Virus record (IMG/VR): IMGVR_UViG_3300024058_000006
Coordinates: 1-31,079 of that record
From: a virus
Lineage: Duplodnaviria > Caudoviricetes
Length of the DNA: 31,079 nt
Strand: one strand, 5' to 3'
The number at the start of each line of letters is the position of its first letter. The first letter of the stretch is position 1. Below are positions 2 through 27,903 of this stretch, one piece after another. Both the position numbers and the translations under genes were made by a program. A model generated the notes under the pieces. It had not been told where the DNA came from and made no database searches. It saw nothing but the letters and a program-made list of their open reading frames with translations.

Positions 2-3000
2 GAGAATCACTGCTGGGGCGAGGAAGCGCCCAGCGCGGATACGCCGGTCCTGCCAGCCGACGCGGGCACCGATCTATCAATAAACCTGCCGGAATTTTTC
101 GGCGGCAATGACGCCGGCGGCGGCGGCGGCCTGATCGGCATCCTTACCATATACCCGGGGACCGAAACCCAGGAGCTGTCAACATACCTCGCGCCCTTCC
201 AAATTCCCCAGCCGACCTACCGGGGGACGGTATACCTTACCTGGAACAGGGGCGAGATAGGCCAAAGCCCGCAGCTTCGAAAATTCGATTTTGAACTATC
301 GCGTATATTCGACGGCCTGGCGCTCGCTACATTCCAGCCCGGGGACGAGGTAGTTGAGGAGGGCATGAATCCCATGAACGTGGTGTTCGAGGTCCTGACG
401 AATACCGAGTGGGGCCTGGCCGTGGATGCCTCGCAGATAAATATAATTAGCCTCCGCGCGGTGGCCGCAATCCTGGCAACCGAGGGTAACGGCTTTTCCT
501 GGATATGGGACCGGGTAATGGAGGTGCTGCAGGTAATCCGGCTGATTGAGGAGCAGACCGATGGCATATTGATACAGGACCCGGTAACCGGTATTTTCGA
601 TTTTAAGCTGATCAGGGCCGATTATGTCCCGGCGGCGCTTGAGGTCCTGGACGAAGCCAACGTGGTCGATCTATCGAGATTCGGGCGTCCCTCCTGGGCC
701 AGCACGACCAATGTAGTCAACCTCCAATTTGCCGACCGACAAAAGGGTTACACGACGTCCTATGCCATCGCGCAGGATATGGCAAACATCGATATAGTGG
801 GCTCGATTAATGCCGCCGAGGTGAAGTATCCGGGGGTGAAAAATGGCGCGCTCGCCAATGCGCTCGTGTGGCGGGAATTGCGCCAGCTATCATACCCGAT
901 AGCGACGGGCCGGCTTACCAGCGACCGCTCACAATTCGATCTACAGCCCGGCGACGTCCGCGCGCTATCCTGGTCGGTGATGGGTATTACTCTCCTGCCG
1001 ATCCGGATCACAAAGGTGAACAGGGGTCGTATCCTGGATAATAAAATCGTGATTGATTTCAGCGAGGATATTTTCGAATTTATACCAGGCTCGTTCAGCG
1101 ATCCGGTGGCCACGCTTTGGATACCGCCCGACGACACAGCCTTCGCTGCATTCGCCGAGGTACTAATCGAGCTGCCCTTTAGAATCACGGACGTATCCGA
1201 TACGGGCATAAATACCGTCCTGCTGCAAGTGGGCACAATCGCTGTTCGCAATGGCGGGCAGCACGTGGCTTATAATATTTTTGCCACCGAGGTAGATGCC
1301 CCAGGCCCGGCTCCGGTGCCCACGCTTAATTCAATAATCGATCCTGGCGACCAGGCGCTGTTTTCACCATTCGGCCTGCTCAATGGCGTTATAGATCGAG
1401 GCCAAACAAACGGCTTTCAGGACGCGGTGGGCTTTGAAATTGACGGTGCCATAGATTTAGATTTGGTCGGCAGTACGGACGCCGTCGGGCTGGAGGCCGG
1501 GCAAAATGTGCTGCTGATCGATGACGAAATAATGCTATTTTCAACGGTCGTGGGGCTGGCCGGCGTGTTCCAAATTTCCGACCTAGTCCGGGGTGCGCTC
1601 GATACCATCCCAGCCGATCATGCCAACAACGCCGAGGTATTTCTGTTCAGCTATGGAATAGGGCTCGTGAATAGCCTGCCGAATCCGGACGTCACCAGGA
1701 ATTACCAAGTCCGCAATCAGCCGAGGACGCCATTCAACACCCTGCTTTTCGGCGCGACCGTCCCGCTTGGCATCACCACCGTGGGCCGAGCCGGGAAGGG
1801 ATACCCGCCACGAAATGTGCAAATAAACAACACCGCCCCGGGCGGCGGCTTCTTCCCGGTCGACGCCGGCAGCCCGAGCGGAGCCGAGCTAGTCGGGACC
1901 CTGGCGATCCGCTGGGCCGGCTCGGATAAATTCAGCCAGCTATTTGCCACCGCCTGGGACGATCCGCACGTCGCGGAGGAGGCGGGCGTGGGATTTAGAA
2001 TAGTAATCACCGAGGACCCGGCAGGAGCGGCCACCGTAAAGCTGGACGTTTCGGGCATCCCGGTTGGCGCTACCGAGGGCGCATATAACGCTGTGGGATT
2101 CGCGGACGATACGGTCACCGACCAATACCAGGTCGAAATATCCAGCGAAAATCTCAACGGCGAATCACAGGTGTGGCTAATCGGGCCCTTTGCAATCTAT
2201 GGCTTCGGGTATAAATTCGACGAGAAATTCGGCGGCGATGTTGACGGTTTCGTGGCTATCAAAGCCCAGCTGCCACCAACGATTGATCCGATACCCGGCG
2301 TCACGACCGAGAATATATTTAGGCTTACCGCCAGCGGCAGCTTCGATCTAGACGACGATTTACACGTGAGAATATCATTTCTCGAAACCGGCCAGGCCGT
2401 GGCCCAGGACGAGGATTATAACGTCATCGGTACGACCGGCGGTAAAACATCGATTACCGATTACCTGACCGCTATCGCGAATTTTATAGCCGCCGATTTT
2501 GACCCGCTGAAGGTAGTAACAAATGTGACCGGAAATATCCTGACCGTCAGCAGCGTATTCGGCACGCTCGGCGGATCGGTGCAAAATAATACCTCCGCTA
2601 TCCGCATCGATCTGTTGCAAGCCCCGAGGCCCATCCAAAACGCTATTAATCAGGTGATGCATTTCGACCTTTGGGAGGCCGATACGAGCGCGAAGCCCGG
2701 CACCGAAATATTGGCTCCGGACAATCTATCGGTTTATAACCAAACGGGCGTCGAGGTTAATAAATTGGATCTGTCAATCGTGGGCTTGGCTCCCGAGGAT
2801 AAGGCCGACATTCCGCTCGGCGGCAGCCGGCACGTCCAGCTATTGTGGGGCGGCAAGGAGGTGGCGCCAGGAACGCAGGCCGTCAGCCGGCAGGGCCCGC
2901 TGCGCGATGGCACCGTGATATCGGGCGTCCCAAATACCGATTTATTGTCCCGCATGGAGGACCTGGCGTCGACCGTATGGAGCGAATATATCGAGGCAGT

Positions 3001-3583
3001 ACGCTGGTCGAATTACAGCCCTGTATCGATAGGCGTCGGCAAGGACAAGCAGGACCGGCCCAGCGTCGAGGTGACGATGCGCCCGGGCTATAGAATGGTG
3101 GCCCCGAGCCAATATGAATCGGCTCCAAATAATACGAATTTCACCGGCGTATTCGGCCCGATCCGCCTGCTGGGTAAGGAGCTATTCAGGCCGCGAGGCT
3201 TTGGGGAATTTAACGGCAACCCTCAAGTGGTACGCTTGTCGATGGGCCACTCGCATGACCAGAACGGCACGCCTGAAACGAATATTGTGGCAGGCCAATT
3301 TTATACCGTGATCCTGGACGACGTCGAGTACACCTACACCACGGTCGGCGCGGATGCATCCGACCCGTTTCACTTCGACGGAATATTTGCTGGCCTGACT
3401 ACGGTAATAGATGCCAGCGGGCTGTTCACGGTAATCGCTACCAATACGCAGCTCCGATTTGCGGGCGGGCCTACCTTTATTAAATCGATTGATATAGAGC
3501 GGGATATCGGAAACACCGCATTTACCTTTGACGCGAGGGCCAGCTTTGGCTTAATAATCGATGTCGAAAACCTTATACAATAG
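2..3583 (+). CDS. Central tail / tail-tip (host-specificity J-like) protein, 5'-truncated
   Basis: The frame of ORF 365..3583 stays open back to base 2 (ENHCWGEE...FFGGNDAGGGGG...PTYRGTVYL...). Motifs MNPMNVVFEVLTNTEWGL, GFSWIWD, FKLIRADY and LQPGDV match phage tail-tip proteins. It is followed by a DUF2793 gene. Confidence 0.85.
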   Translation, partial: ENHCWGEEAPSADTPVLPADAGTDLSINLPEFFGGNDAGGGGGLIGILTIYPGTETQELSTYLAPFQIPQPTYRGTVYLTWNRGEIGQSPQLRKFDFELSRIFDGLALATFQPGDEVVEEGMNPMNVVFEVLTNTEWGLAVDASQINIISLRAVAAILATEGNGFSWIWDRVMEVLQVIRLIEEQTDGILIQDPVTGIFDFKLIRADYVPAALEVLDEANVVDLSRFGRPSWASTTNVVNLQFADRQKGYTTSYAIAQDMANIDIVGSINAAEVKYPGVKNGALANALVWRELRQLSYPIATGRLTSDRSQFDLQPGDVRALSWSVMGITLLPIRITKVNRGRILDNKIVIDFSEDIFEFIPGSFSDPVATLWIPPDDTAFAAFAEVLIELPFRITDVSDTGINTVLLQVGTIAVRNGGQHVAYNIFATEVDAPGPAPVPTLNSIIDPGDQALFSPFGLLNGVIDRGQTNGFQDAVGFEIDGAIDLDLVGSTDAVGLEAGQNVLLIDDEIMLFSTVVGLAGVFQISDLVRGALDTIPADHANNAEVFLFSYGIGLVNSLPNPDVTRNYQVRNQPRTPFNTLLFGATVPLGITTVGRAGKGYPPRNVQINNTAPGGGFFPVDAGSPSGAELVGTLAIRWAGSDKFSQLFATAWDDPHVAEEAGVGFRIVITEDPAGAATVKLDVSGIPVGATEGAYNAVGFADDTVTDQYQVEISSENLNGESQVWLIGPFAIYGFGYKFDEKFGGDVDGFVAIKAQLPPTIDPIPGVTTENIFRLTASGSFDLDDDLHVRISFLETGQAVAQDEDYNVIGTTGGKTSITDYLTAIANFIAADFDPLKVVTNVTGNILTVSSVFGTLGGSVQNNTSAIRIDLLQAPRPIQNAINQVMHFDLWEADTSAKPGTEILAPDNLSVYNQTGVEVNKLDLSIVGLAPEDKADIPLGGSRHVQLLWGGKEVAPGTQAVSRQGPLRDGTVISGVPNTDLLSRMEDLASTVWSEYIEAVRWSNYSPVSIGVGKDKQDRPSVEVTMRPGYRMVAPSQYESAPNNTNFTGVFGPIRLLGKELFRPRGFGEFNGNPQVVRLSMGHSHDQNGTPETNIVAGQFYTVILDDVEYTYTTVGADASDPFHFDGIFAGLTTVIDASGLFTVIATNTQLRFAGGPTFIKSIDIERDIGNTAFTFDARASFGLIIDVENLIQ

Positions 3584-4240: not shown

Positions 4241-4519
4241 ATGAAGCAGCCCAACAGTAAAATGCACCGAATCCGGCACCGGGGACGCCTTCAATCCGCG
4301 ACCAATAAGCAGCGAATGCTGAACAGGCACACGGTATTGGCGGCTGCGGAAATGAACGCGATTGGTGGCGTATCCGGGGTGACCATCCCCGAATGTATAG
4401 CCAGCATCACCGATAATGCGACCATCAATCCGGTGGGCGTGCGCGATATCCGGGCAGGCTATCAACGCGGCACCGCCCTCGTGGCTGATGTCGAGGCGCT
4501 CGGTATTCCGATTGCATAG
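4241..4519 (+). CDS. Hypothetical protein with Arg/His-rich N-terminus (last gene of tail module)
   Basis: AGGAG RBS at ~4229, 92 aa, co-oriented with the tail genes. Confidence 0.7.
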   Translation: MKQPNSKMHRIRHRGRLQSATNKQRMLNRHTVLAAAEMNAIGGVSGVTIPECIASITDNATINPVGVRDIRAGYQRGTALVADVEALGIPIA

Positions 4520-4603
4520 CGGCGGGACCCTATAGCCGGGGTTGTCTATCCCAGCTGGTATAGCCGGTTTTATCTATGCGATCCCATAGTCGCATTTATC
4601 TAT
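4516..4603. repeat. Cluster of four ATAG-N10-CTAT gapped palindromes
   Basis: Exact copies start at 4516, 4532, 4560 and 4586, in the gap between convergent genes. Confidence 0.85.
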
Positions 4604-4622: not shown

Positions 4623-4919
4623 TCAGCGCAAATCGGCCACGTCCCTCGATAGGATCGCCGTCCTCATTTGTCCCACGGACGGGGCATTACCCGCCTGCAG
4701 AATCGCCTTACAAAGCCATCGAAGGTCGGTCCTGGTAAGGCTATAAAACCCCTTCTGGATCGCCACCGGAAATATGCTCGCATGAATCGGCAGCTCCTTA
4801 TCCTGGAGCCATTCCACGAATTGCTCCGCGTCACTATGATTGATATACGCGGGCTTCATTTTGGCCTGCTTCGGCATTAAATCAAATGTGGCCTGGGGCC
4901 TTTCAGAACGGGATGTCAT
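4623..4919 (-). CDS. Hypothetical protein, possibly helicase-loader-like
   Basis: 98 aa, overlaps the upstream gene. The C-terminal APSVGQMRTAI weakly recalls the xPxxxexr motif of phage helicase loaders (SPP1 G39P/lambda P type). The function is inference only. Confidence 0.55.
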   Translation of the reverse strand: MTSRSERPQATFDLMPKQAKMKPAYINHSDAEQFVEWLQDKELPIHASIFPVAIQKGFYSLTRTDLRWLCKAILQAGNAPSVGQMRTAILSRDVADLR

Positions 4920-5256
4920 CGAAATAATCGTCGTCGTCCACCGATTTTAGGGCCTCGGATTTCTTCGCCGGGTATACCTTCGTGTCGTAGCGACTAGTCG
5001 AGCGAACGCCCGGGTCCCCGAAATTGCCCTCCTCCTTTGGCTTTTGAAAGCCGCGGGTATGATCGCCGTCCGCCTTATAGCAGGGCGGGCACAAGGTCAT
5101 ATACGGAGCGCCATTGAAAGGCTTATTACAAGTACCGCAGCGTTGTTCCAATTCGCAAACGTGCCTTTTTTTTGTCCCGGGATCATACGTCGCCCAGCGA
5201 CCCCAGGCGTTCTTTTCAAAGATGATTTCTGCCATACAATATTTACATTCAGCCAT
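4903..5256 (-). CDS. Zn-finger protein with SSB-like acidic C-terminal tail (DDDDYFDDIPF)
   Basis: CKYC...HVC, CGTC and CPPC motifs, a DDIPF terminus, and an AGGGG RBS. Confidence 0.8.
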   Translation of the reverse strand: MAECKYCMAEIIFEKNAWGRWATYDPGTKKRHVCELEQRCGTCNKPFNGAPYMTLCPPCYKADGDHTRGFQKPKEEGNFGDPGVRSTSRYDTKVYPAKKSEALKSVDDDDYFDDIPF

Positions 5257-5520
5257 GTTTAAACCCCTATTTTATTAATGTCGTCCGGTGAGCGTTTGGG
5301 CGCAGCAAGGTCCACAGGCCGGGAATTAAAAAAAAGCTAATCCTGGTCGGTGTACCTCGCCGCGCGATATGCCGACCGGAGCCGCGTCAGTACCGCATTG
5401 CATTGTCCGCCGTCCCGAGGGTCCTACCCAATTGCTAGTCCCGGATGGTCGGCGAATACGGTCCTCACCCGGAATTAATACGAAGCTCGGGTCGCAACTT
5501 GGCGTTTTCCATTCGCAGAT

Positions 5521-5592
5521 TTAGGGCCCGAAATCGTCGGTCAGGGGTTGCAGGGGAGGGTATGGGCGTGTTCTAATTGGCTGCCCGGTCAT
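5521..5592 (-). CDS. Putative 23-aa leader peptide MTGQPIRTRPYPPLQPLTDDFGP
   Basis: ATG at 5592 preceded by CAGGA, with TAA at 5523-5521. The RBS and ATG lie inside the hairpin CGGTCA...TGACCG. Confidence 0.35.
   Translation of the reverse strand: MTGQPIRTRPYPPLQPLTDDFGP
5548..5577 (+). promoter_or_regulatory. Candidate antisense sigma70-like promoter
   Basis: TTGCAG (5548-5553), 18-bp spacer, TG-n-TCTAAT (5572-5577). The -10 is non-ideal. It points into two hairpins that end in a U-tract. Confidence 0.35.
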
Positions 5593-5616
5593 TCGTCCTG
5601 CAAAGATTTCTGACCG

Positions 5617-5657
5617 AAAAAAGGCCCCGCCGGAATCTCTAGCGGGGCCTTGCTTTT
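5617..5657. terminator. Intrinsic terminator/attenuator, likely bidirectional
   Basis: Stem AAGGCCCCGC (5621-5630) / GCGGGGCCTT (5642-5651), with T6 on the minus strand and GCTTTT on the plus strand. Confidence 0.8.
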
Positions 5658-5695
5658 ATACCCCACCACGTGGCTGGGGTCGAGCTATTTCGAAA

Positions 5696-5950
5696 CTATC
5701 GGTTTTTTTGTTCCTCCTCGATAGCCAGCTCCTCGCAAAGGGCGTGGACGTAATTGATCCACGAGCCCGTCCGCCGTTTTATTTCCGGATCGTCGTCGTT
5801 ATAAAACCGGGTTTCCCATCCAATCGGCTCGTCGCAATGCCGGCAAATTGAGCCAGCCGTGACGCGAATAGCCGCGCAATCCCGGTGGGAGCATTCCGCG
5901 CAGGGGCTAAATTCGCTGCCCGTTTCCGGCGGCAACATCCCGGCAGCCAT
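5696..5950 (-). CDS. Cys-rich putative Zn-binding hypothetical protein
   Basis: Start moved to ATG 5950 (TAATG overlap, GGAGG RBS). CAECSHRDC, CRHC and HALC motifs. Confidence 0.75.
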   Translation of the reverse strand: MAAGMLPPETGSEFSPCAECSHRDCAAIRVTAGSICRHCDEPIGWETRFYNDDDPEIKRRTGSWINYVHALCEELAIEEEQKNR

Positions 5951-6234
5951 TACGCGCCCTCCGATTTTTTCCAATGCCAGAATTGGCTGCCCGGGCCGTA
6001 ACGCCATACGGCTGGGCTGGGGGATACCTCGACGTTTCGCAATACCAGCCGCAGGTATTTTTGCCGGAGGCTGGGCGCGAATCGCCGCAGGTAAGGTATC
6101 CTGGTCGCCGCAAAATAAATACGAAACGGCTCCTCGGGTACGTTATCGCATAGCTCGTCGAATATCGCGTCGCCATGATTGCGTAAAAACGCCGCCTGAT
6201 CCGAAAACATTATTTTTTTCATATATAGGTCCAT
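5950..6234 (-). CDS. Hypothetical protein, paralog of 6234..6524
   Basis: Start at ATG 6234 (TAATG overlap, GGAGG RBS). Shares HGD..LCDNVPE...RI.YLR.F...YLR.VLRNV with its neighbour. Confidence 0.8.
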   Translation of the reverse strand: MDLYMKKIMFSDQAAFLRNHGDAIFDELCDNVPEEPFRIYFAATRIPYLRRFAPSLRQKYLRLVLRNVEVSPSPAVWRYGPGSQFWHWKKSEGA

Positions 6235-6524
6235 TATCCGTGGTCCTCCATTTTGCCGGCGGTATCGATCCACACCCAATGATTACCCGAGCGACGTATC
6301 GCAGGGCAATCCTGGGCGGCTACGTTTCGTAGTACGCAGCGAAGGTACACGCCGCGTTGGGGCTCTTTAAATTGCCGTAGATAGCGAATGCGGGCCACGG
6401 CGGATCGTATATTAAAAAGGTCCTCGGGGACGTTATCGCATAATTGCTCCCAAATTTTGTCGCCGTGGATTTCCAAGAAGCGGTCCTGGCCTAGAAAGGC
6501 TACCGCGGTTAAATTGCTTTTCAC
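6234..6524 (-). CDS. Hypothetical protein, paralog of 5950..6234
   Basis: GTG start overlapping the upstream stop, AGGAG RBS, and motifs shared with its neighbour. Confidence 0.8.
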   Translation of the reverse strand: MKSNLTAVAFLGQDRFLEIHGDKIWEQLCDNVPEDLFNIRSAVARIRYLRQFKEPQRGVYLRCVLRNVAAQDCPAIRRSGNHWVWIDTAGKMEDHG

Positions 6525-9591: not shown

Positions 9592-9865
9592 AGCGATATT
9601 TATAGACGAGCGGGTAGCCGACCGGCTGCCTGCCGAGCCGCCGGAAAGCGACGCGCCAACGGTCCATTATATGAGGGCCGATATCGTGGCGGCTTTGATG
9701 CACCAGGCCAGCGGCGACACCGAATTTTTTATACAGGTATCCTGGATGCCGGGGGAGCGCGGGCTATTGGCGCTGACTAATTTCGGGCGGATATTTAGAA
9801 AGCCGCCTGACTCGAATTTTTGGGAAGAGATAGCCGGACCCCGGCTGGACGATTTTCCCCGATGA
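9578..9865 (+). CDS. Hypothetical protein
   Basis: GGGAG RBS, overlaps both neighbours, 95 aa. Confidence 0.7.
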   Translation: MSAPEAIFIDERVADRLPAEPPESDAPTVHYMRADIVAALMHQASGDTEFFIQVSWMPGERGLLALTNFGRIFRKPPDSNFWEEIAGPRLDDFPR

Positions 9866-10110
9866 ATATATACACGACCCGCTTTACAGCCGCCTGCCCG
9901 AATGACGGAAACCCGATTGAATACTCGCTCAAAATCGAAAGTGAGGAGTTTATTATGTGCGAGGATATATCCGAAATGCTGGATAAATACGCCCTGGACC
10001 CGATTTATCAGGAGGCGATAGCCGACGAGCTATTCCGCAAATTAGGCTGCCGGCGGCTTTGCATTACCGGCACCCACGCGGGCATCGATGTCGCCAGCAT
10101 TCGCCCGTGA
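9862..10110 (+). CDS. Small QueF-like T-fold protein
   Basis: ATGA-coupled start. FTAACPNDGNP...YQEAIADEL resembles QueF FTxxCPxxGxPD...HExxxxxI. 82 aa. Confidence 0.6.
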   Translation: MNIYTTRFTAACPNDGNPIEYSLKIESEEFIMCEDISEMLDKYALDPIYQEAIADELFRKLGCRRLCITGTHAGIDVASIRP

Positions 10111-10700
10111 GAATAATGCTCGATTGCGCCGAGCAAACGATACTCAAAAGGGAGGCGTTATTTGGCTGGGATTTCTGGCAGCTGCGGACGCCGATATCCC
10201 GGCATAAAATCACCAAGCGACCGTATGGCCTGGATAATGGCTGCTTCACCTCATTTCGCGAGCGTACCTGGACGCGGATGCTGGTCGAGGCCCGGGAAAA
10301 TAAACCCGTATTCGTATGCCTGCCGGATATAGTCGGCGATGCCAGGCGCACCCTGGAGCTATTCGAGCAATTCGAAACGGTCACCGAAGGGCTGCCCCGG
10401 GCCCTGGTACTGCAGGACGGGATCGGGGCGCTGACGATTCCCTGGAGCAAAATAGAAGCGGTCTTTGTCGGCGGCACCGATAACTTCAAAATATCCCCTG
10501 AATGTACCAGCGCGGTGGCCGCTGCTAAAATCCTGAATAAATGGATTCACGTGGGCCGGATCAATTCGGCTGCCCGGCTGAGTAATTGGCTGGGGGTCGG
10601 CGATTCGCTCGACGGCAGCGGTATTTCAAAAATCGATTACCGGCTCGGCGATTTGCTCTCGTCGATCAAAAGCGCCGACGACCAGCATTCGCTCCTGTGA
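10107..10700 (+). CDS. TGT-like / DpdA-like guanine transglycosylase (candidate DNA base-exchange enzyme)
   Basis: GTGA-coupled start. LDNGCF, PDIVGD, FVGG, HVGRIN and DSLDGS follow the TGT/DpdA motif order (DSGGF, D, GG, HxxG, DxxD). Confidence 0.65.
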   Translation: MRIMLDCAEQTILKREALFGWDFWQLRTPISRHKITKRPYGLDNGCFTSFRERTWTRMLVEARENKPVFVCLPDIVGDARRTLELFEQFETVTEGLPRALVLQDGIGALTIPWSKIEAVFVGGTDNFKISPECTSAVAAAKILNKWIHVGRINSAARLSNWLGVGDSLDGSGISKIDYRLGDLLSSIKSADDQHSLL

Positions 10701-11272: not shown

Positions 11273-11293
11273 TATCGCGGGGGATGCTACAAT
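11273..11293 (+). promoter_or_regulatory. Promoter/operator upstream of the recombinase gene
   Basis: TATCGC-N7-GCTACA overlapping TGnTACAAT. Confidence 0.65.
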
Positions 11294-11319
11294 CGGGCTT
11301 CACTTTGCAGGAGTATTCA

Positions 11320-12339
11320 ATGAATGACAGCGCACTAGAAATCATCGAGGGCGAGGCCAAAGAGGTCCCCTCATCCAACGGCCAGGCTATAGAAATCCGC
11401 TCGGCCTTCGATATATCCCCAGCCAAATTCAAAGCCGGCCTGGCCCGGCGCGGTAAAAACCGGGCGGCGCTTATGGAATGGTTGCGCCGCGAGCTGAAGG
11501 AGGGCGTCGATTGGGGTCGCATCCACGTCGTGAAAAAGGACAAATGCCCGGAGCCCTGGAATTGCACGAATGCATACCACTTTAGCAAGCCCAGCCTGTG
11601 GAAATCGGGTGCCGAAAAGCTGTCGGGCATGATGGGCCTGCGATCTACCTGGCCCACGCTCGATGCCGAATTGGACAAGGTACGCGGCGGGTCGGTAATG
11701 ATCCTGCTTAAATGCCAGCTGCTAGATATGGCCGGCAATACCGTCTCGGAGGGAATCGGTGCCCGGACGCTCGACCAGGATTCCGGCGACATAAATAAGG
11801 CGCTCAAAATGGCGAAGAAAAGCTCGCTGATCGATGCCGTATTAAATGCCGGCGGGCTATCCGAGGTGTTCACGCAGGACGTCGAGGATATGCCGCCCGA
11901 GCAATTCGGCGACCGGGCGGTGGCGGACCCATACCAGGCTGGCGAGGACCGCTCCGAGAGCGCATTTCCGAAAAGCACCGCCCAATACAATGTCGCGACC
12001 CACTGTACGATTGGCAAGGAGAAGGGTAAAAAGTGGGGCGAGGTGGACGATGGCTACCTGCAGTGGATTTGCTCCAACATCGATGACAAGCCCGATCTAT
12101 TAGCCGCCGCCCGAAAGGAGCTAGACGGGCGCTCGGTAGAATCACAGGAATCGGTTAGCCGCCGGCAGGACGAAAAAATCACGGAGGACGGGAGGACGCT
12201 GGCCGATTTCGCCAGGGCGCTGACCGCCTGTAAAACTATCGATATGTTGACGGCATTGCGGGACGAAATTCCGCTTGATTTTGAGCCCGCGTTGCGTACT
12301 TATATCACGACCCGCGAAGCTGAATTATTAATGAAGTAA
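11320..12339 (+). CDS. Putative single-strand annealing recombinase with ExoX-C/QSregVF-like small domain
   Basis: AGGAG RBS. KPSLWKSGAEKL...NKALKMAKKSSLIDAVL...LSEVFTQDVED is a phage SSAP-type pattern. IGKEKGKKWGEVDDGYLQWI is the GKxKG..YLxW module. Confidence 0.7.
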   Translation: MNDSALEIIEGEAKEVPSSNGQAIEIRSAFDISPAKFKAGLARRGKNRAALMEWLRRELKEGVDWGRIHVVKKDKCPEPWNCTNAYHFSKPSLWKSGAEKLSGMMGLRSTWPTLDAELDKVRGGSVMILLKCQLLDMAGNTVSEGIGARTLDQDSGDINKALKMAKKSSLIDAVLNAGGLSEVFTQDVEDMPPEQFGDRAVADPYQAGEDRSESAFPKSTAQYNVATHCTIGKEKGKKWGEVDDGYLQWICSNIDDKPDLLAAARKELDGRSVESQESVSRRQDEKITEDGRTLADFARALTACKTIDMLTALRDEIPLDFEPALRTYITTREAELLMK

Positions 12340-12368: not shown

Positions 12369-13085
12369 ATGGAAACAGCATCACAACATTCACTCGCCTG
12401 TGCCGAGCTCGTACCAATCGTGACAGATATCGCCGCCTTTGCCGGTACGCTGGAGGGCATCGATGTTACCGACGAGGAGACGCAGGGCCAGCTGGGCGAT
12501 CTAGTCAAAATGATGAACCACCGCCGCCGGAAATTGGAGGATAAGCGGCTATCATTGGTGAAGCCTTTGACCGGGGTCGTCAGCGAAATCAACGCCATGT
12601 TCAAAACGCCCCGGGACCGGATCGATGAAATAGTGGGCCTGGCAAAAAAGAAGATGAACACATTTGCTCGGGCCCAGCAGCTGATCGCCGATGAAAAGCG
12701 CCGGCAGGAACGGTTGCTGGCCGAGGCCGAGCGCCGGGAGGCGCAGGAGCTGGCAGCCGCCCTGAATAAAAAGGCGGGCGTCGAGGCTGCCCCGGTAGCC
12801 GAGCAAATTACCGAAGCCGCGGAAAAAAAGGTCGAGGCCGTGGCAGCGCCGGCGAAGGTAGCCGCAAGCCGGGGACAGGAGGCCTCGGTTATTACATCGA
12901 AAAAATGGGCAGCCGAGGTCCGGGATTTGAAAGCGCTGGCCCTGGCGGTCGGGGAGGGCAAATTACCGACCCACGTGCTGGAGCCGAATATGGCTGCCCT
13001 CCGGGATATCGCCCGCGAATCCAAATTAACGCGCGAGGTATTCGGCGTTTATTTCTTCCAAGATATCACCACTTCAGTACGGTGA
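12369..13085 (+). CDS. Coiled-coil recombination-associated protein (Gam/gp157-like)
   Basis: GGAGG RBS, long coiled coil, C-terminal W.AEV.D...GV.F pattern, adjacent to the recombinase. Confidence 0.6.
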   Translation: METASQHSLACAELVPIVTDIAAFAGTLEGIDVTDEETQGQLGDLVKMMNHRRRKLEDKRLSLVKPLTGVVSEINAMFKTPRDRIDEIVGLAKKKMNTFARAQQLIADEKRRQERLLAEAERREAQELAAALNKKAGVEAAPVAEQITEAAEKKVEAVAAPAKVAASRGQEASVITSKKWAAEVRDLKALALAVGEGKLPTHVLEPNMAALRDIARESKLTREVFGVYFFQDITTSVR

Positions 13086-16060: not shown

Positions 16061-16246
16061 AAGGCAATCGATCCTGTGGTTCGGGAAAGAAGGCGATCAC
16101 GCCTGCAATCCGGAAACGGAGGTGATCGCGCCTGCGATTCGAAAAAGAAGGCAATCGCGCCTGCGATTCGGAAGGCGAGGTTATCGCGCCTCCTATTCGG
16201 AAAAGGAGGTGGTCCCGCCTGCAATCCGGAAACGCAGGCAATCCTG
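16061..16246. repeat. Tandem array of six degenerate 29-bp units plus a partial unit
   Basis: Units start at 16061, 16090, 16119, 16148, 16177 and 16206. Consensus RAGGYRATCGCGCCTGCRATYCGGAAAVG. Confidence 0.9.
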
Positions 16247-16277
16247 AGTGCTATTTGAAAAGGGAGTTGGGGATCCT

Positions 16278-16436
16278 ATAGACAAATTTAACTATGCGGT
16301 CCCCATAGATATTTTTGACGATGGTAGCTAGCATAGCCGAGGCCGGCTATGATTGCCGGCGCTCGAGCATAGTCGGCCCTGGCTATCCGATATCGCTGCC
16401 CCGATCGCACGATCGCTCATAGACGTTTTTATCTAT
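16278..16436. repeat. Cluster of five ATAG-N10-CTAT gapped palindromes
   Basis: Exact copies at 16278, 16333, 16369 and 16419, and a variant ATAG-N10-CGAT at 16305. The last copy contains the methylase stop codon. Confidence 0.85.
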
Positions 16437-17110
16437 TCAGGATCTGAAGCCAGGATCGCAGCCAAAACCGCCTGGCGCTCCCCGGGCGGCAGCTTCGCAT
16501 ACCGGGACGCCCATCGCGCCGCCTTCCGTTTTATCCGCTGCCTATCGGTGAAATTTTTACCCGCAAACGTGTGGTAATGGATAGCCCCGGGGTCGAAATT
16601 GCACCACACCGTTTCGGTACGCACGCCGCCCCTCGTCATTGCCTGGAAATCCAAGCTGAACCAATTTGCCAGCGATTTGTTATACAGAGGATTTCGATAG
16701 CCCGACAACATGACATTGCAGCTCATCGCCCGGAGTATCCGGAGCAGCTCCCAGTGGTCGTCATCGGATAATTCGTGCTTATAGCGGCATTTCGACGTCC
16801 GGGTCGAATGCATATAAGGCGGGTCTAAATACACGAGGGTTTCCCGATTAAAAGCGCCTTTCAAATATCCGAAGGCGTCGGCTTTATGGATTTCGAATAG
16901 GGCGTCAGGCCATTGCCCGCGAAGCCGGACAATCGCGGGAAGCCCCGCGGTGATATCCTTGTCAATAGCGACGTTATGCTTCGCCGGAATTTTGAGCTGC
17001 ATGATTGCGCCGGTGCCGAAAAATGGCTCGATATATGTCTCGTGCGGCGGCATCAAATTAATAATAGCCTGGTATGTTCCCGAGCCCGCCTTCGCGCCTA
17101 AATATCTCAC
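16433..17110 (-). CDS. Short Dam-like (D12 class, alpha group) N6-adenine DNA methyltransferase
   Basis: Motif X YLGAK, motif I YIEPFFGTGAI, motif IV YLDPPY, MLSGY and ETVWCNF. 225 aa. Confidence 0.9.
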   Translation of the reverse strand: MRYLGAKAGSGTYQAIINLMPPHETYIEPFFGTGAIMQLKIPAKHNVAIDKDITAGLPAIVRLRGQWPDALFEIHKADAFGYLKGAFNRETLVYLDPPYMHSTRTSKCRYKHELSDDDHWELLRILRAMSCNVMLSGYRNPLYNKSLANWFSLDFQAMTRGGVRTETVWCNFDPGAIHYHTFAGKNFTDRQRIKRKAARWASRYAKLPPGERQAVLAAILASDPE

Positions 17111-17119
17111 AGGTACCCC

Positions 17120-17192
17120 ATAGTCGAACGTATCTATTCCGCTGGCATAATAGCTGATTTATCTGGTGTATTGTAGCGCCCGGTGCTACGAT
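17120..17192. promoter_or_regulatory. Methylase upstream region: ATAG-N10-CTAT site plus a divergent promoter with the 19-bp operator
   Basis: ATAG-N10-CTAT at 17120-17137. TGTAGC-N7-GCTACG at 17172-17190 carries -10 hexamers on both strands (TACAAT minus, TACGAT plus). Confidence 0.65.
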
Positions 17193-17200
17193 TCCCAGCC

Positions 17201-17386
17201 GTGATTGATTTCTTCAGCGAGCATTGGATTCTATCTCTGCTAATATTGGCAGCGCTGGGGTCGTTAAGCTCGGCCCTTGTCGGTTGGTATTACCACGCCA
17301 AGCTGCGGAGCGCCATGAAGCGCTGGGAATATGAAGAACGGGAGCGGATCGATGAACAAAAAAAACTACATGAATGGAGGCCGTGA
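17201..17386 (+). CDS. Small membrane protein
   Basis: One TM helix plus a charged tail. The start is uncertain (GTG 17183 lies inside the operator; GTG 17201 is more plausible). Confidence 0.55.
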   Translation: MIDFFSEHWILSLLILAALGSLSSALVGWYYHAKLRSAMKRWEYEERERIDEQKKLHEWRP

Positions 17387-17628
17387 TGGCTGTCATACCA
17401 AAGCTCCGCGTGCAGCGGATGGGAAAGAAGCACCGGATTGTATACGAGCAATCGAGGTGCCTGGCGAAATTCAACAGCGGCGAGCCAGTAGATGGCGGCG
17501 GTTATTTGGATCAATACCAGGACGGGAAAAAGGAAGTGGACGGCCAGCTGGAATGCATGAAGAAGCTGACCGAGGTAACGGCTGGGTATCAAATCGAGGA
17601 CCCGGAAGCCGAGGCAATCGGCAATTAA
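17386..17628 (+). CDS. Hypothetical protein
   Basis: GGAGG RBS, TGATG coupling, 80 aa. Confidence 0.65.
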   Translation: MAVIPKLRVQRMGKKHRIVYEQSRCLAKFNSGEPVDGGGYLDQYQDGKKEVDGQLECMKKLTEVTAGYQIEDPEAEAIGN

Positions 17629-18332
17629 TCGCAGCGCTTGTAATCGTGCTGCTGATGGCTATCGTTATAATTCTCACGCCCGCCGATGCCAGAAAGGGCC
17701 ACGGCGGCGACAAGGGCCACGGCGGCGACCATGATCGCGGCGGCGGTCATAGCGACGGCCACGACGACGGGGACAACGGGCATGACGATAACGGAGATGA
17801 TAAAGGCGGCGATAACGGCAGCCCGCCAGGTCCCGGGCCTAATGGCGGACGTGGCTCTCGCGCTGATTCTGGCGGCGGTAATGGCTGCAATCCTAATTCT
17901 GGTGACAGTAAGCCAGAATGCCCCGTCCGAAAAGCCCGTCCTCCCATCGTCCGATTCAAAAGAATATCTCCTAACATAACGCAATACTACAGCGCCTGGG
18001 GCCGGGTAATCGGCACGTCGATCACCGAGCCCGCTGTTCCGGATGTTGCCGCTGTTGCGCCCAACACTCCGAACACGCCCGATATCGCCGCTGTTCCGGT
18101 AACATCGGCTAACCCGGCCAACACCGCCGATGTTGCCGCGGTTGCCGCTGTTCCCGCTGTTAAGCCAACACCGCCGCCGCCGGTAGTACGCGCGCTGGCT
18201 AAAGAGAGCGAGGCGGTAATCGATTTGCTCGTGGCCCAGGCGATTGCCCGTGGTGCGGAAAGCGCACCCGTCAAAATACCGGAGCCCGCGCTCATTGAAT
18301 GCATACCTCCGCCGAATGACCCGCTTCCATAA
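17553..18332 (+). CDS. Low-complexity, probably exported protein (His/Gly/Asp-rich and Pro/Ala-rich); start uncertain
   Basis: Hydrophobic stretch ending ADA|RKG, then GHGGD repeats and DVAAV repeats. Possible starts are 17553, 17646 and 17655. Confidence 0.5.
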   Translation: MHEEADRGNGWVSNRGPGSRGNRQLIAALVIVLLMAIVIILTPADARKGHGGDKGHGGDHDRGGGHSDGHDDGDNGHDDNGDDKGGDNGSPPGPGPNGGRGSRADSGGGNGCNPNSGDSKPECPVRKARPPIVRFKRISPNITQYYSAWGRVIGTSITEPAVPDVAAVAPNTPNTPDIAAVPVTSANPANTADVAAVAAVPAVKPTPPPPVVRALAKESEAVIDLLVAQAIARGAESAPVKIPEPALIECIPPPNDPLP

Positions 18333-26934: not shown

Positions 26935-27903
26935 ATGCCTGATCCAAAAAACCCCGATGAAAATCAGCCACCGAGCACGCCCGATACCGCGGCGGAAATC
27001 GAAGAAACCCCGGAAGTAAGCCAATCTGGCGATGAAATCGAAATTACCAGCGACGACGTTGGCGATGTCGGCGACGTTCTTGGCGACCCTATACAACCGG
27101 ATGCCCCTGAAAACGAGCCCGCAGGCGATCCTGCAGGGGATGCCCCGGAGCCGGATATAGCCCCGGACCCGCTAGAAGAGCCGGGTGCCGAGGAACCTGG
27201 GACCGGTGCGGAAGCCCCGCCCGAACAGCCCGAACAGCCCGAACAGCCCGATGTTGCGGCTGTTGCGGCTAACATTCCGGACACCGCCGATGTTGCCGAA
27301 CCACCGCCCGATTCGCCCGATGTTGCGGCTGTTGCCGATGTTGCGGCTGTTGCCGATGTTGCGGCTGTTGCGCCTGTTATCGATAAAGCCAGGCGGCGCG
27401 CTACTACCGGAGCCGACAAAAAAATAGCCGATACAAAGCGCCATGATGCCGCAATTGCCGAAGCCGCTGCCGAAGCACCGGAGCCTACCGCCGAGGTGAA
27501 AGCCAGCGACGAGCGCCGGGATGCCATCGCTGCCGAAATGTACGAGCTAGACGAGCAGGCAGCCGCCCTTGAGAATGAGGCATTAAAGCTGCGCGAAAAG
27601 GGAGCCGCCCTGCAGCTGGACCTATATCCGCAACAGGGCCCGAATGATCTGCATAGCAAAGCGGTCCGGGGATACCTGGACGCCTCCGCTCGTGAGCGCG
27701 CGCATCGCGCTGCAAGCCCGGCCCGGCTTAAGGCTATGCTGAAGGCAGCGGGCTTGGCACCGATAGACGCAGCATTCCAGCGCCAGCGAGCCAGGGGAAT
27801 GTCGCGACCGAAACACCCGGCGAAGGAGCAGGCCCCAGCTGCCAGCCAGGATCAAAACCCGGGCGGCAAGCCCGGGGAAGCCGAAGCAGCAGCCCAGGAG
27901 TGA
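26935..27903 (+). CDS. Acidic Pro/Ala-rich head-associated hypothetical protein
   Basis: AGGAG RBS, disordered N-terminal half, C-terminal helical part with APIDAAF, located after the capsid gene. Confidence 0.75.
   Translation: MPDPKNPDENQPPSTPDTAAEIEETPEVSQSGDEIEITSDDVGDVGDVLGDPIQPDAPENEPAGDPAGDAPEPDIAPDPLEEPGAEEPGTGAEAPPEQPEQPEQPDVAAVAANIPDTADVAEPPPDSPDVAAVADVAAVADVAAVAPVIDKARRRATTGADKKIADTKRHDAAIAEAAAEAPEPTAEVKASDERRDAIAAEMYELDEQAAALENEALKLREKGAALQLDLYPQQGPNDLHSKAVRGYLDASARERAHRAASPARLKAMLKAAGLAPIDAAFQRQRARGMSRPKHPAKEQAPAASQDQNPGGKPGEAEAAAQE

Follow-up and report, generated by a model that had tools for sequence, protein, structure and literature searches.

The stretch of DNA analysed here (the window) is the whole of a linear record of 31,079 bases, G000, from a tailed phage. 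Its tail genes are followed by an early operon that runs leftward, an operon running rightward that includes lysis genes, and then the terminase, portal and capsid genes. The features discussed below are collected in Table 1. They comprise a non-coding core with two facing promoter motifs and two hairpins, a further non-coding module, and the genes for two small proteins of 117 and 98 residues.

Table 1 Features of the cassette, with positions in the window.
Feature	Position	Strand	Description
Sense promoter motif Ps	5655..5683	-	-35 TCGACC (5678-5683), 17-bp spacer, -10 TATAAA (5655-5660)
Hairpin 1	5617..5649		GC-rich stem; ends in a T-run (minus strand) or a T-rich tail (plus strand)
Hairpin a	5586..5616		6-bp stem with compensatory changes; near-invariant T(T/A)GCAGG loop
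Predicted antisense RNA	5584..5657	+	About 74 nt, two stem-loops, ends in hairpin 1
Antisense promoter motif Pa	5548..5577	+	-35 TTGCAG (5548-5553), 18-bp spacer, TG-extended -10 TCTAAT (5572-5577)
23-aa ORF	5521..5592	-	ATG at this position in four of the 19 elements; lengths 18-57 aa, unrelated sequences
Downstream non-coding module, type A	5271..5545	-	Common to the window and loci L173 and L181
117-aa zinc-finger protein	4903..5256	-	Two zinc-binding motifs, CxxC..HxC and CxxC..CxxC; acidic tail ending in DDIPF
98-aa protein	4623..4919	-	Helical domain of about 75 residues; phage-restricted family

The window is a 31-kb part of a phage genome of about 44.7 kb. A 44,655-base metagenome contig is 99.98% identical to it over 15,256 bases, and shows that about 13.6 kb are missing from the window. 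The contig supplies 5,095 further bases, which hold tail genes, and about 8.5 kb of the phage genome lie outside the data covered. In two relatives, G001 and G003, the equivalent interval is occupied by adaptor, closure, neck, terminator, major tail, chaperone and tape-measure genes amounting to about 6.4 kb, so that little space is left in the uncovered interval. The capsid protein is about 55% identical to those of the Pseudomonas phages MiCath, JG054 and NP1. A DNA search of cultured phages gave no match of note to the window, and a tblastn search of them with relatives of both small proteins gave no match at all. No prophage was found in GTDB genomes, where there was one short spurious match; the ESM Atlas held no usable match, and Foldseek searches against the PDB and BFVD returned nothing at E ≤ 0.001. 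Six relatives were reached through an annealing-protein-like gene (51-63% identity), and all six retain both small genes in the same place. Two relatives, G009 (44,835 bases) and G010 (45,542 bases), carry direct terminal repeats of 144 and 102 bases, respectively, and were treated as circular; their CheckV completeness is 58% and 72% despite these end repeats.

Several other features of the window were recorded. Palindromes of the form ATAG-N10-CTAT occur nine times, compared to 0.37 expected, in two clusters. Four lie at 4516..4603, behind the 98-aa gene and outside the conserved cassette, and the others, at 16278-16436 and 17120-17137, flank a minus-strand gene for a D12-class adenine methylase (16433-17110). 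None was found in the stretches of the relatives that were scanned, and these palindromes may be operator sites or may mark a mobile methylase cassette. A tandem array of six to seven copies of a 29-bp unit, iteron-like in appearance, lies at 16061-16261 directly after the spanin gene, and no such array is present in G009 or G010. Two adjacent minus-strand genes at 5950-6279 and 6234-6524 have products that look by eye like tandem paralogs and belong to no Pfam or PHROGs family. Two low-complexity ORFs, at 17331-18332 and 26935-27903, share a 9-bp repeat unit 9 kb apart. The small genes phrog_37496/phrog_15826 at 9820-10700 of the window, and the methyltransferase and queuine tRNA-ribosyltransferase-like genes of G009 (L130, 8626-10408), hint at DNA base modification in the family.

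The preliminary description of this DNA had recognised no replication enzyme, and our searches agree. HMM comparison with PHROGs and Pfam gave no replication enzyme among 30 non-structural ORFs of the window, and no primase, helicase, polymerase, initiator or integrase was found for G009 and G010 together, either among 123 ORFs compared to PHROGs or among 115 compared to Pfam. The ORFs scanned in these two genomes were those of the non-structural regions together with unassigned ORFs, leaving aside some short overlapping frames and morphogenesis genes. The profile matches obtained were to lysis, morphogenesis, methyltransferase, HTH, RusA/DUF1064 resolvase and exonuclease-associated families. 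Two further matches were judged not to be enzymes: one to phrog_192 (polymerase exonuclease subunit), over about 60 residues of the annealing-protein-like gene (E 5e-4, and 9e-6 in G010), and one of a coiled-coil protein to Pfam Phage_GPA, under the cut-off at E 0.018. At the sensitivity of HMM scans, this family of uncultured phages has no recognisable replication enzyme in its two circular members; a very small or remote initiator would escape such scans. A family-wide gene pair in the window (11284-12339 and 12369-13085; phrog_10048 and phrog_10477) probably encodes an annealing protein and an exonuclease-associated coiled-coil partner, and has no solved relative by sequence.

Both small ORFs of the preliminary description, a zinc-finger ORF of 117 codons ending in DDIPF and a 98-codon ORF, are present. 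The 117-aa protein has no Pfam or PHROGs family. Its tail is disordered and acidic, like the C-terminal tip of bacterial SSB (alignment A5), and this SSB-like character is conserved: PF forms the C-terminal end in 70 of 72 homologs, with an acidic residue just before it in 59 of the 72. An acidic tail ending in (I/V/P)PF, the mark of proteins with an SSB-type C-terminal tip, is thus found in the 117-aa family. The tip of Escherichia coli SSB, according to PMC5872125, is DDDIPF and binds partner proteins. A contig from a sequencing run that was possibly of RNA spans positions 4895-5128 only.

The family of the 98-aa protein has 30 matches, 27 of which cover most of the domain, and the predicted structure has a pLDDT of 89. 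When this model was used in a wide structural search, G39P of phage SPP1 (1no1) ranked fourth, with a Z of 5.4 and an rmsd of 2.5 over 60 of 67 residues; this likeness is tied with that to AAA+ lid domains and lies under the noise level of the tool. Sequence and profile tests against PF11417 and G39P were negative for all five records and all 31 family members, and a PF11417 search of 49 other records gave no match; hhalign of the family against a single G39P sequence gave E 0.29. Z values of 5.5 and 5.7 between G39P and the Vibrio helicase loaders VdhL1 and VdhL2 are given in PMC11087808, so a Z of 5.4 is compatible with a loader without showing it. The family differs from G39P and VdhL in lacking a sequence or profile match, in being equally close to the AAA+ lid, and in having no adjoining phage helicase or O-like initiator. 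On the basis of a weak fold likeness without a sequence match, the 98-aa protein may be a G39P-like helicase loader. In some relatives the domain is found in other settings: it is fused to a winged-helix-like N-terminal part in L008 (3703-4461), P0076 and P0097, and to a zinc-finger part in P0088, and in L011 a winged-helix-like gene (2676-3155) lies between the two small genes.

The DNA upstream of the two genes was compared across viral contigs. A DNA pattern scan returned 46 loci, 21 of which have both small genes downstream; the 25 that do not were used as controls. The 21 family loci contain 17 distinct elements which, with the window and locus L124, make a set of 19. All 19 have in common a core of about 140 bp, in which a sigma70-type promoter is followed by a GC hairpin with a T-run, then by a second hairpin whose stem shows compensatory changes, and last by a promoter pointing the other way. 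The patterns used for the core features were written after the family had been seen, and the control rates are the informative part of what follows. The sense promoter motif, Ps, lies 4-7 bases before hairpin 1, the foot of which is its predicted start site, and its spacing is kept in 20 of 21 family loci compared to one of 25 unrelated pattern matches. The stem of hairpin a has at least 5 bp in 20/21 family loci and in 2/25 controls. For the antisense promoter motif, Pa, the opposing -35 TTGC(A/G)G is found in every family locus (21/21) and in four of the 25 controls, and the full motif with its extended -10 in 20/21 and 0/25, respectively. Invariant columns of the alignment (A8) fall on the hexamers of both promoters, and in Pa on the -35, the G and the final T. 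In the window and in L181 the Pa -10 lacks the A at the second position and is weak. A promoter and terminator scanner called neither promoter, nor the hairpin 1 terminator, in the window, so these calls rest on conservation.

Aligning the upstream regions of homologs, as the preliminary description had proposed, brought out this conserved core with compensatory stem changes. That description had missed the two conserved, facing promoter motifs. The terminator that it placed here, a GC hairpin with a T-run, is present, and hairpin 1 is predicted to act as a bidirectional terminator that forms the 5' end of the sense RNA and the 3' end of the antisense RNA. A counter-transcript, which it had cited from antisense-controlled replicons, also finds support, as the family has the Pa motif and a predicted two-hairpin antisense RNA, of 73-82 nt and with the same fold in all 18 elements folded. 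The stretch is a conserved and folded element as regards the core; the details of the leader are not conserved. Hairpin a does hold the ATG of a 23-aa ORF; the ORF itself is not conserved, and the reading of it as a leader peptide or attenuator is not supported, as there is no conserved leader ORF. The stem of hairpin a is CGGTCG/CGACCG in nine elements, CGGTCA/TGACCG in the window and CGCTCG/CGAGCG in L155, and the ATG in the window is a by-product of this stem change; judged by sequence comparison, the 23-aa ORF is probably incidental.

The stretch 5257-5660 folds better than its dinucleotide shuffles (z -3.56 for the minus strand, -3.07 for the plus strand). A search of Rfam found nothing at gathering level in the window, and only generic terminator-like matches below the cut-off in the relatives. 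The loop of hairpin a could also pair over a distance with the -35 region of Pa; 11 of 19 elements carry an A-C mismatch in this pairing, and L151, an unrelated contig considered below, lacks it. We also considered a second sense promoter with the loop TTGCAG as its -35, and rejected it: the spacing to the -10 is scattered over 16-21, and the promoter is absent in three of 19 elements, the window among them.

Behind the core lie 200-290 nt that fall into four types, A (three elements, including the window), B (seven), C (five) and D (four), which do not match one another by nhmmer. The distance from Ps to the next RBS is about 310-400 nt, and in L173, L141 and L124 the element and the zinc-finger gene are separated by other, inserted genes. 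An inverted repeat at 5345-5377 is present, as had been described. The CCGG(G)AATTAA motif reported earlier does occur twice (5319 and 5468); it is found in none of the 18 other elements, and no role for it is supported. Base pairs of the consensus fold are changed on both sides in 19 of 76 cases for type A (from three sequences only), 13 of 53 for type B and 11 of 63 for type C. Per-helix counts for type B cover helices 1, 2, 3, 7 and 8, and in helix 3 five of six pairs are changed on both sides. For every one of the four types, the consensus energy is lower on the sense strand (-73/-61, -48/-34, -60/-58 and -55/-40), the column-shuffle control for this being a lax one. Single-sequence folding of the downstream part is modest, with a z of -1.5 in the window and z ≤ -2.0 in six of 18 elements. 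In a close relative (record 6 of run X2, 5105-5661), seven of the 11 differences listed fall in 152 coding bases and four in 405 non-coding bases; at most three more differences exist.

Some of the modules carry sites of a kind found in replication origins. In type C, all DnaA-box-like 9-mers of the five loci fall inside the element, and the only two in the entire 44.8 kb of G009 are both located there. Type D has a G5-N2-G5 tract in four of four elements. GTGAGCG is invariant in type B, and occurs in ColE1 and, on the other strand, in the window at 5288; this may be a primosome assembly site motif, and we found no paper that describes it as such. The type A module of the window contains neither a DnaA box nor a G-run of at least four. 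The GC skew, suggested earlier as a check, gave a divided answer: in G009 the detrended minimum, at 11,727, lies inside the element, and G010 shows no agreement and the window the opposite sign.

Our preferred reading, to which we give roughly an even chance of being correct, is that the cassette is an antisense-controlled, transcript-primed replication origin of the phage family. Ps would drive a folded sense RNA, and this would prime or open replication in the 200-290 bases behind the core; in the window the type A module is the predicted 3' part of this RNA and the likely site of the origin. Part of the sense transcripts would read through the T-run after hairpin 1, and the read-through RNA may form an R-loop that is used by the RNase H/Pol I of the host or by a restart primosome. 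The antisense RNA of about 75 nt would limit priming, as its loop would pair with the sense loop of hairpin a and block it. Both small downstream proteins would help to recruit host replication proteins: the tail of the zinc-finger protein may bind SSB partners, and the 98-aa domain may aid the loading of the host helicase. The lack of any recognisable replication enzyme in the two circular relatives, the conservation of the core, the covarying stems, the better consensus fold of the sense strand, a layout like those of ColE1 and the marine RNA-based (MRB) plasmids, the DnaA-box-like sites of type C and the G-tract of type D argue for an origin of this kind. The absence of a DnaA box or G-run from type A, the weak Pa -10 of the window, a GC skew that agrees only in G009, the lack of an Rfam or ColE1 match, a loader likeness below noise, weak single-sequence folding, the CheckV completeness of only 58% and 72% for G009 and G010, the roughly 8.5 kb of the phage genome outside the data, and the chance that a small or remote initiator escaped the HMM scans argue against it. 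The weakest link is the T-run after hairpin 1, which resembles a strong terminator and could stop most transcripts at about 45 nt, in which case little or none of the long sense RNA might be made.

The strength of that terminator-like hairpin is a point in favour of the main rival account, in which the antisense RNA and the terminator tune expression of the zinc-finger/98-aa operon and the origin lies elsewhere. Counter-transcripts of plasmid rep genes, and the lambda OOP RNA acting on cII, are known analogues. No clear terminator separates the first RBS from the module, and a like core stands before ordinary replication-type genes in L151, both of which suit control of expression. We nevertheless consider expression control alone unlikely: there is no conserved leader ORF, the target of the antisense RNA is 250-330 nt away from the RBS, relatives differ in their first downstream gene, the DnaA-box-like sites of type C are confined to the element, and G009 and G010 have no other origin-like feature in common. 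Because the four modules do not match and the gene right behind the element varies, we favour an origin over a leader tuned to one RBS.

The fixed order of the two genes, which follow the element in 21 of 21 family loci in what could be an initiator-loader arrangement, together with the DnaA-box-like sites of type C, would also fit an origin that is opened at the DNA level by a new small protein initiator. The zinc-finger protein would then be that initiator, the 98-aa protein its loader, and host DnaA would take part in type C; the RNAs would regulate, or activate by transcription, without priming, and the phage would not be initiator-less. Zinc modules can bind DNA, which counts for such a role. 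No iteron-like repeat is common to the elements, however, four unrelated modules go with one protein family, and the covariation and strand bias point to RNA structure, and this protein-opened origin seems to us distinctly improbable.

A last alternative gives the RNA pair some other job, such as an immunity or lifestyle switch like the P4 CI RNA, or a trans-acting small RNA, with replication proceeding by recombination or through an unrecognised gene. The relatives do retain the annealing-protein-like gene, an exonuclease-associated gene and a RusA or DUF1064 resolvase gene; as they possess neither an integrase nor a CI-type switch, control of another kind may be required. Recombination-dependent replication still requires a first origin, however, and the DnaA-box-like sites and the fixed link to a protein with an SSB-type tail are left unexplained; we attach little probability to this account.

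Set against these alternatives, the transcript-primed origin leads to a broader proposal, which we hold tentatively and at somewhat below even chance: a tailed dsDNA phage family may have replaced its initiator gene by a plasmid-style RNA replicon, made up of an antisense-controlled core, four interchangeable origin modules, a zinc-finger adaptor that mimics the SSB tail and a minimal helicase loader, with no replication enzyme of its own. Neither Rfam nor the collection of cultured phages contains the RNA family, and the case is distinctive in that HMM scans recognise no replication enzyme in the circular genomes of the family. If true, the proposal would explain how some 45-kb phages replicate without replication genes, and would point to control of copy number and to a carrier state like that of a plasmid, with neither integrase nor partition genes. 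It would also define a small replicon of about 1.1 kb, and make the zinc-finger protein a mimic of the SSB tail that is not itself an SSB.

In the literature covered, which takes in only a minority of subscription papers, no such cassette is described for tailed phages. A phage parallel is L151, a contig from an unrelated phage that has a sense promoter, a hairpin 1 with T-run and a hairpin a whose loop is the same, together with a G5-N3-G5 tract. In this region of the contig (5716-7640, minus strand) the cassette stands before an O-like initiator gene that matches phrog_391 at profile positions 164-288 of 298, the C-terminal half only, and behind this lies a second gene of phrog_6028, a family without assigned function, which is presumably loader-like. 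The element of L151 matches that of the family by nhmmer at E 3e-4, no better than unrelated terminators do. This contig ties the layout to replication modules, and fits the origin and leader readings alike.

Among plasmids, the leaders of antisense-controlled rep genes (IncFII CopA/tap, IncI Inc RNA/repY, pT181) work through a short counter-transcript that is directed at the 5' end of a longer one. The same arrangement is predicted here, but without a conserved leader peptide and without a rep gene downstream. When the element was compared by blastn to 72,556 plasmids, the best 20 of 23 matches were of 27-35 nt with E 0.1-5. One 27-nt match (E 1), to the Rep-less E. coli plasmid pXD35008, was unsupported by nhmmer and put down to chance. 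That plasmid (3,066 bases; L139, 2440-3066) has no typed replicon and a weak RNAI match (E 0.92), and probably carries a divergent ColE1-like origin.

PMC3035462 names only the ColE1 and MRB plasmids as Rep-less replicons that are initiated by RNA. The cassette is like ColE1 in that no Rep gene is recognised in G009, G010 or the window, and in that a sense promoter stands directly before the hairpin that ends the antisense RNA, with the antisense promoter inside the sense RNA, as judged here from motifs and predicted folds. The far-end G-tract (here in type D) and DnaA-box-like sites (here in type C) are likewise found in the ColE1 record, and the type A module of the window has neither. There is no sequence homology of the element to the ColE1 origin or to Rfam RNAI by nhmmer and Rfam searches. 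ColE1 RNA II is given as about 550 nt, and RNA I as about 100 nt with three loops, in PMC8683028. The cassette differs from ColE1 replicons (RNA I of about 100-110 nt with three stem-loops) in its predicted antisense RNA of 73-82 nt with two stem-loops, and in the distance of about 310-400 nt from Ps to the RBS compared to about 550 there.

The MRB replicon of the pB1067 type, as described in PMC3035462, has a 68-nt RNA I with two loops in a core of about 110 bp, and one member is without homology outside the core. Our cassette shares several features with it: both lack Rep and have a short core with a two-loop antisense RNA and its promoter (68 nt there, 73-82 nt predicted here), the antisense RNA ends at an inverted repeat with runs of A and T on its flanks, and a longer opposite RNA has a downstream part that may be non-homologous among members. 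The present cassette differs in belonging to a tailed phage rather than a Vibrionaceae plasmid, and in having a consensus promoter for the long RNA and two conserved protein genes behind. It is neither a ColE1 member, given its sizes, loops and lack of homology, nor an MRB plasmid, and its layout is closer to that of the MRB replicons than to that of ColE1.
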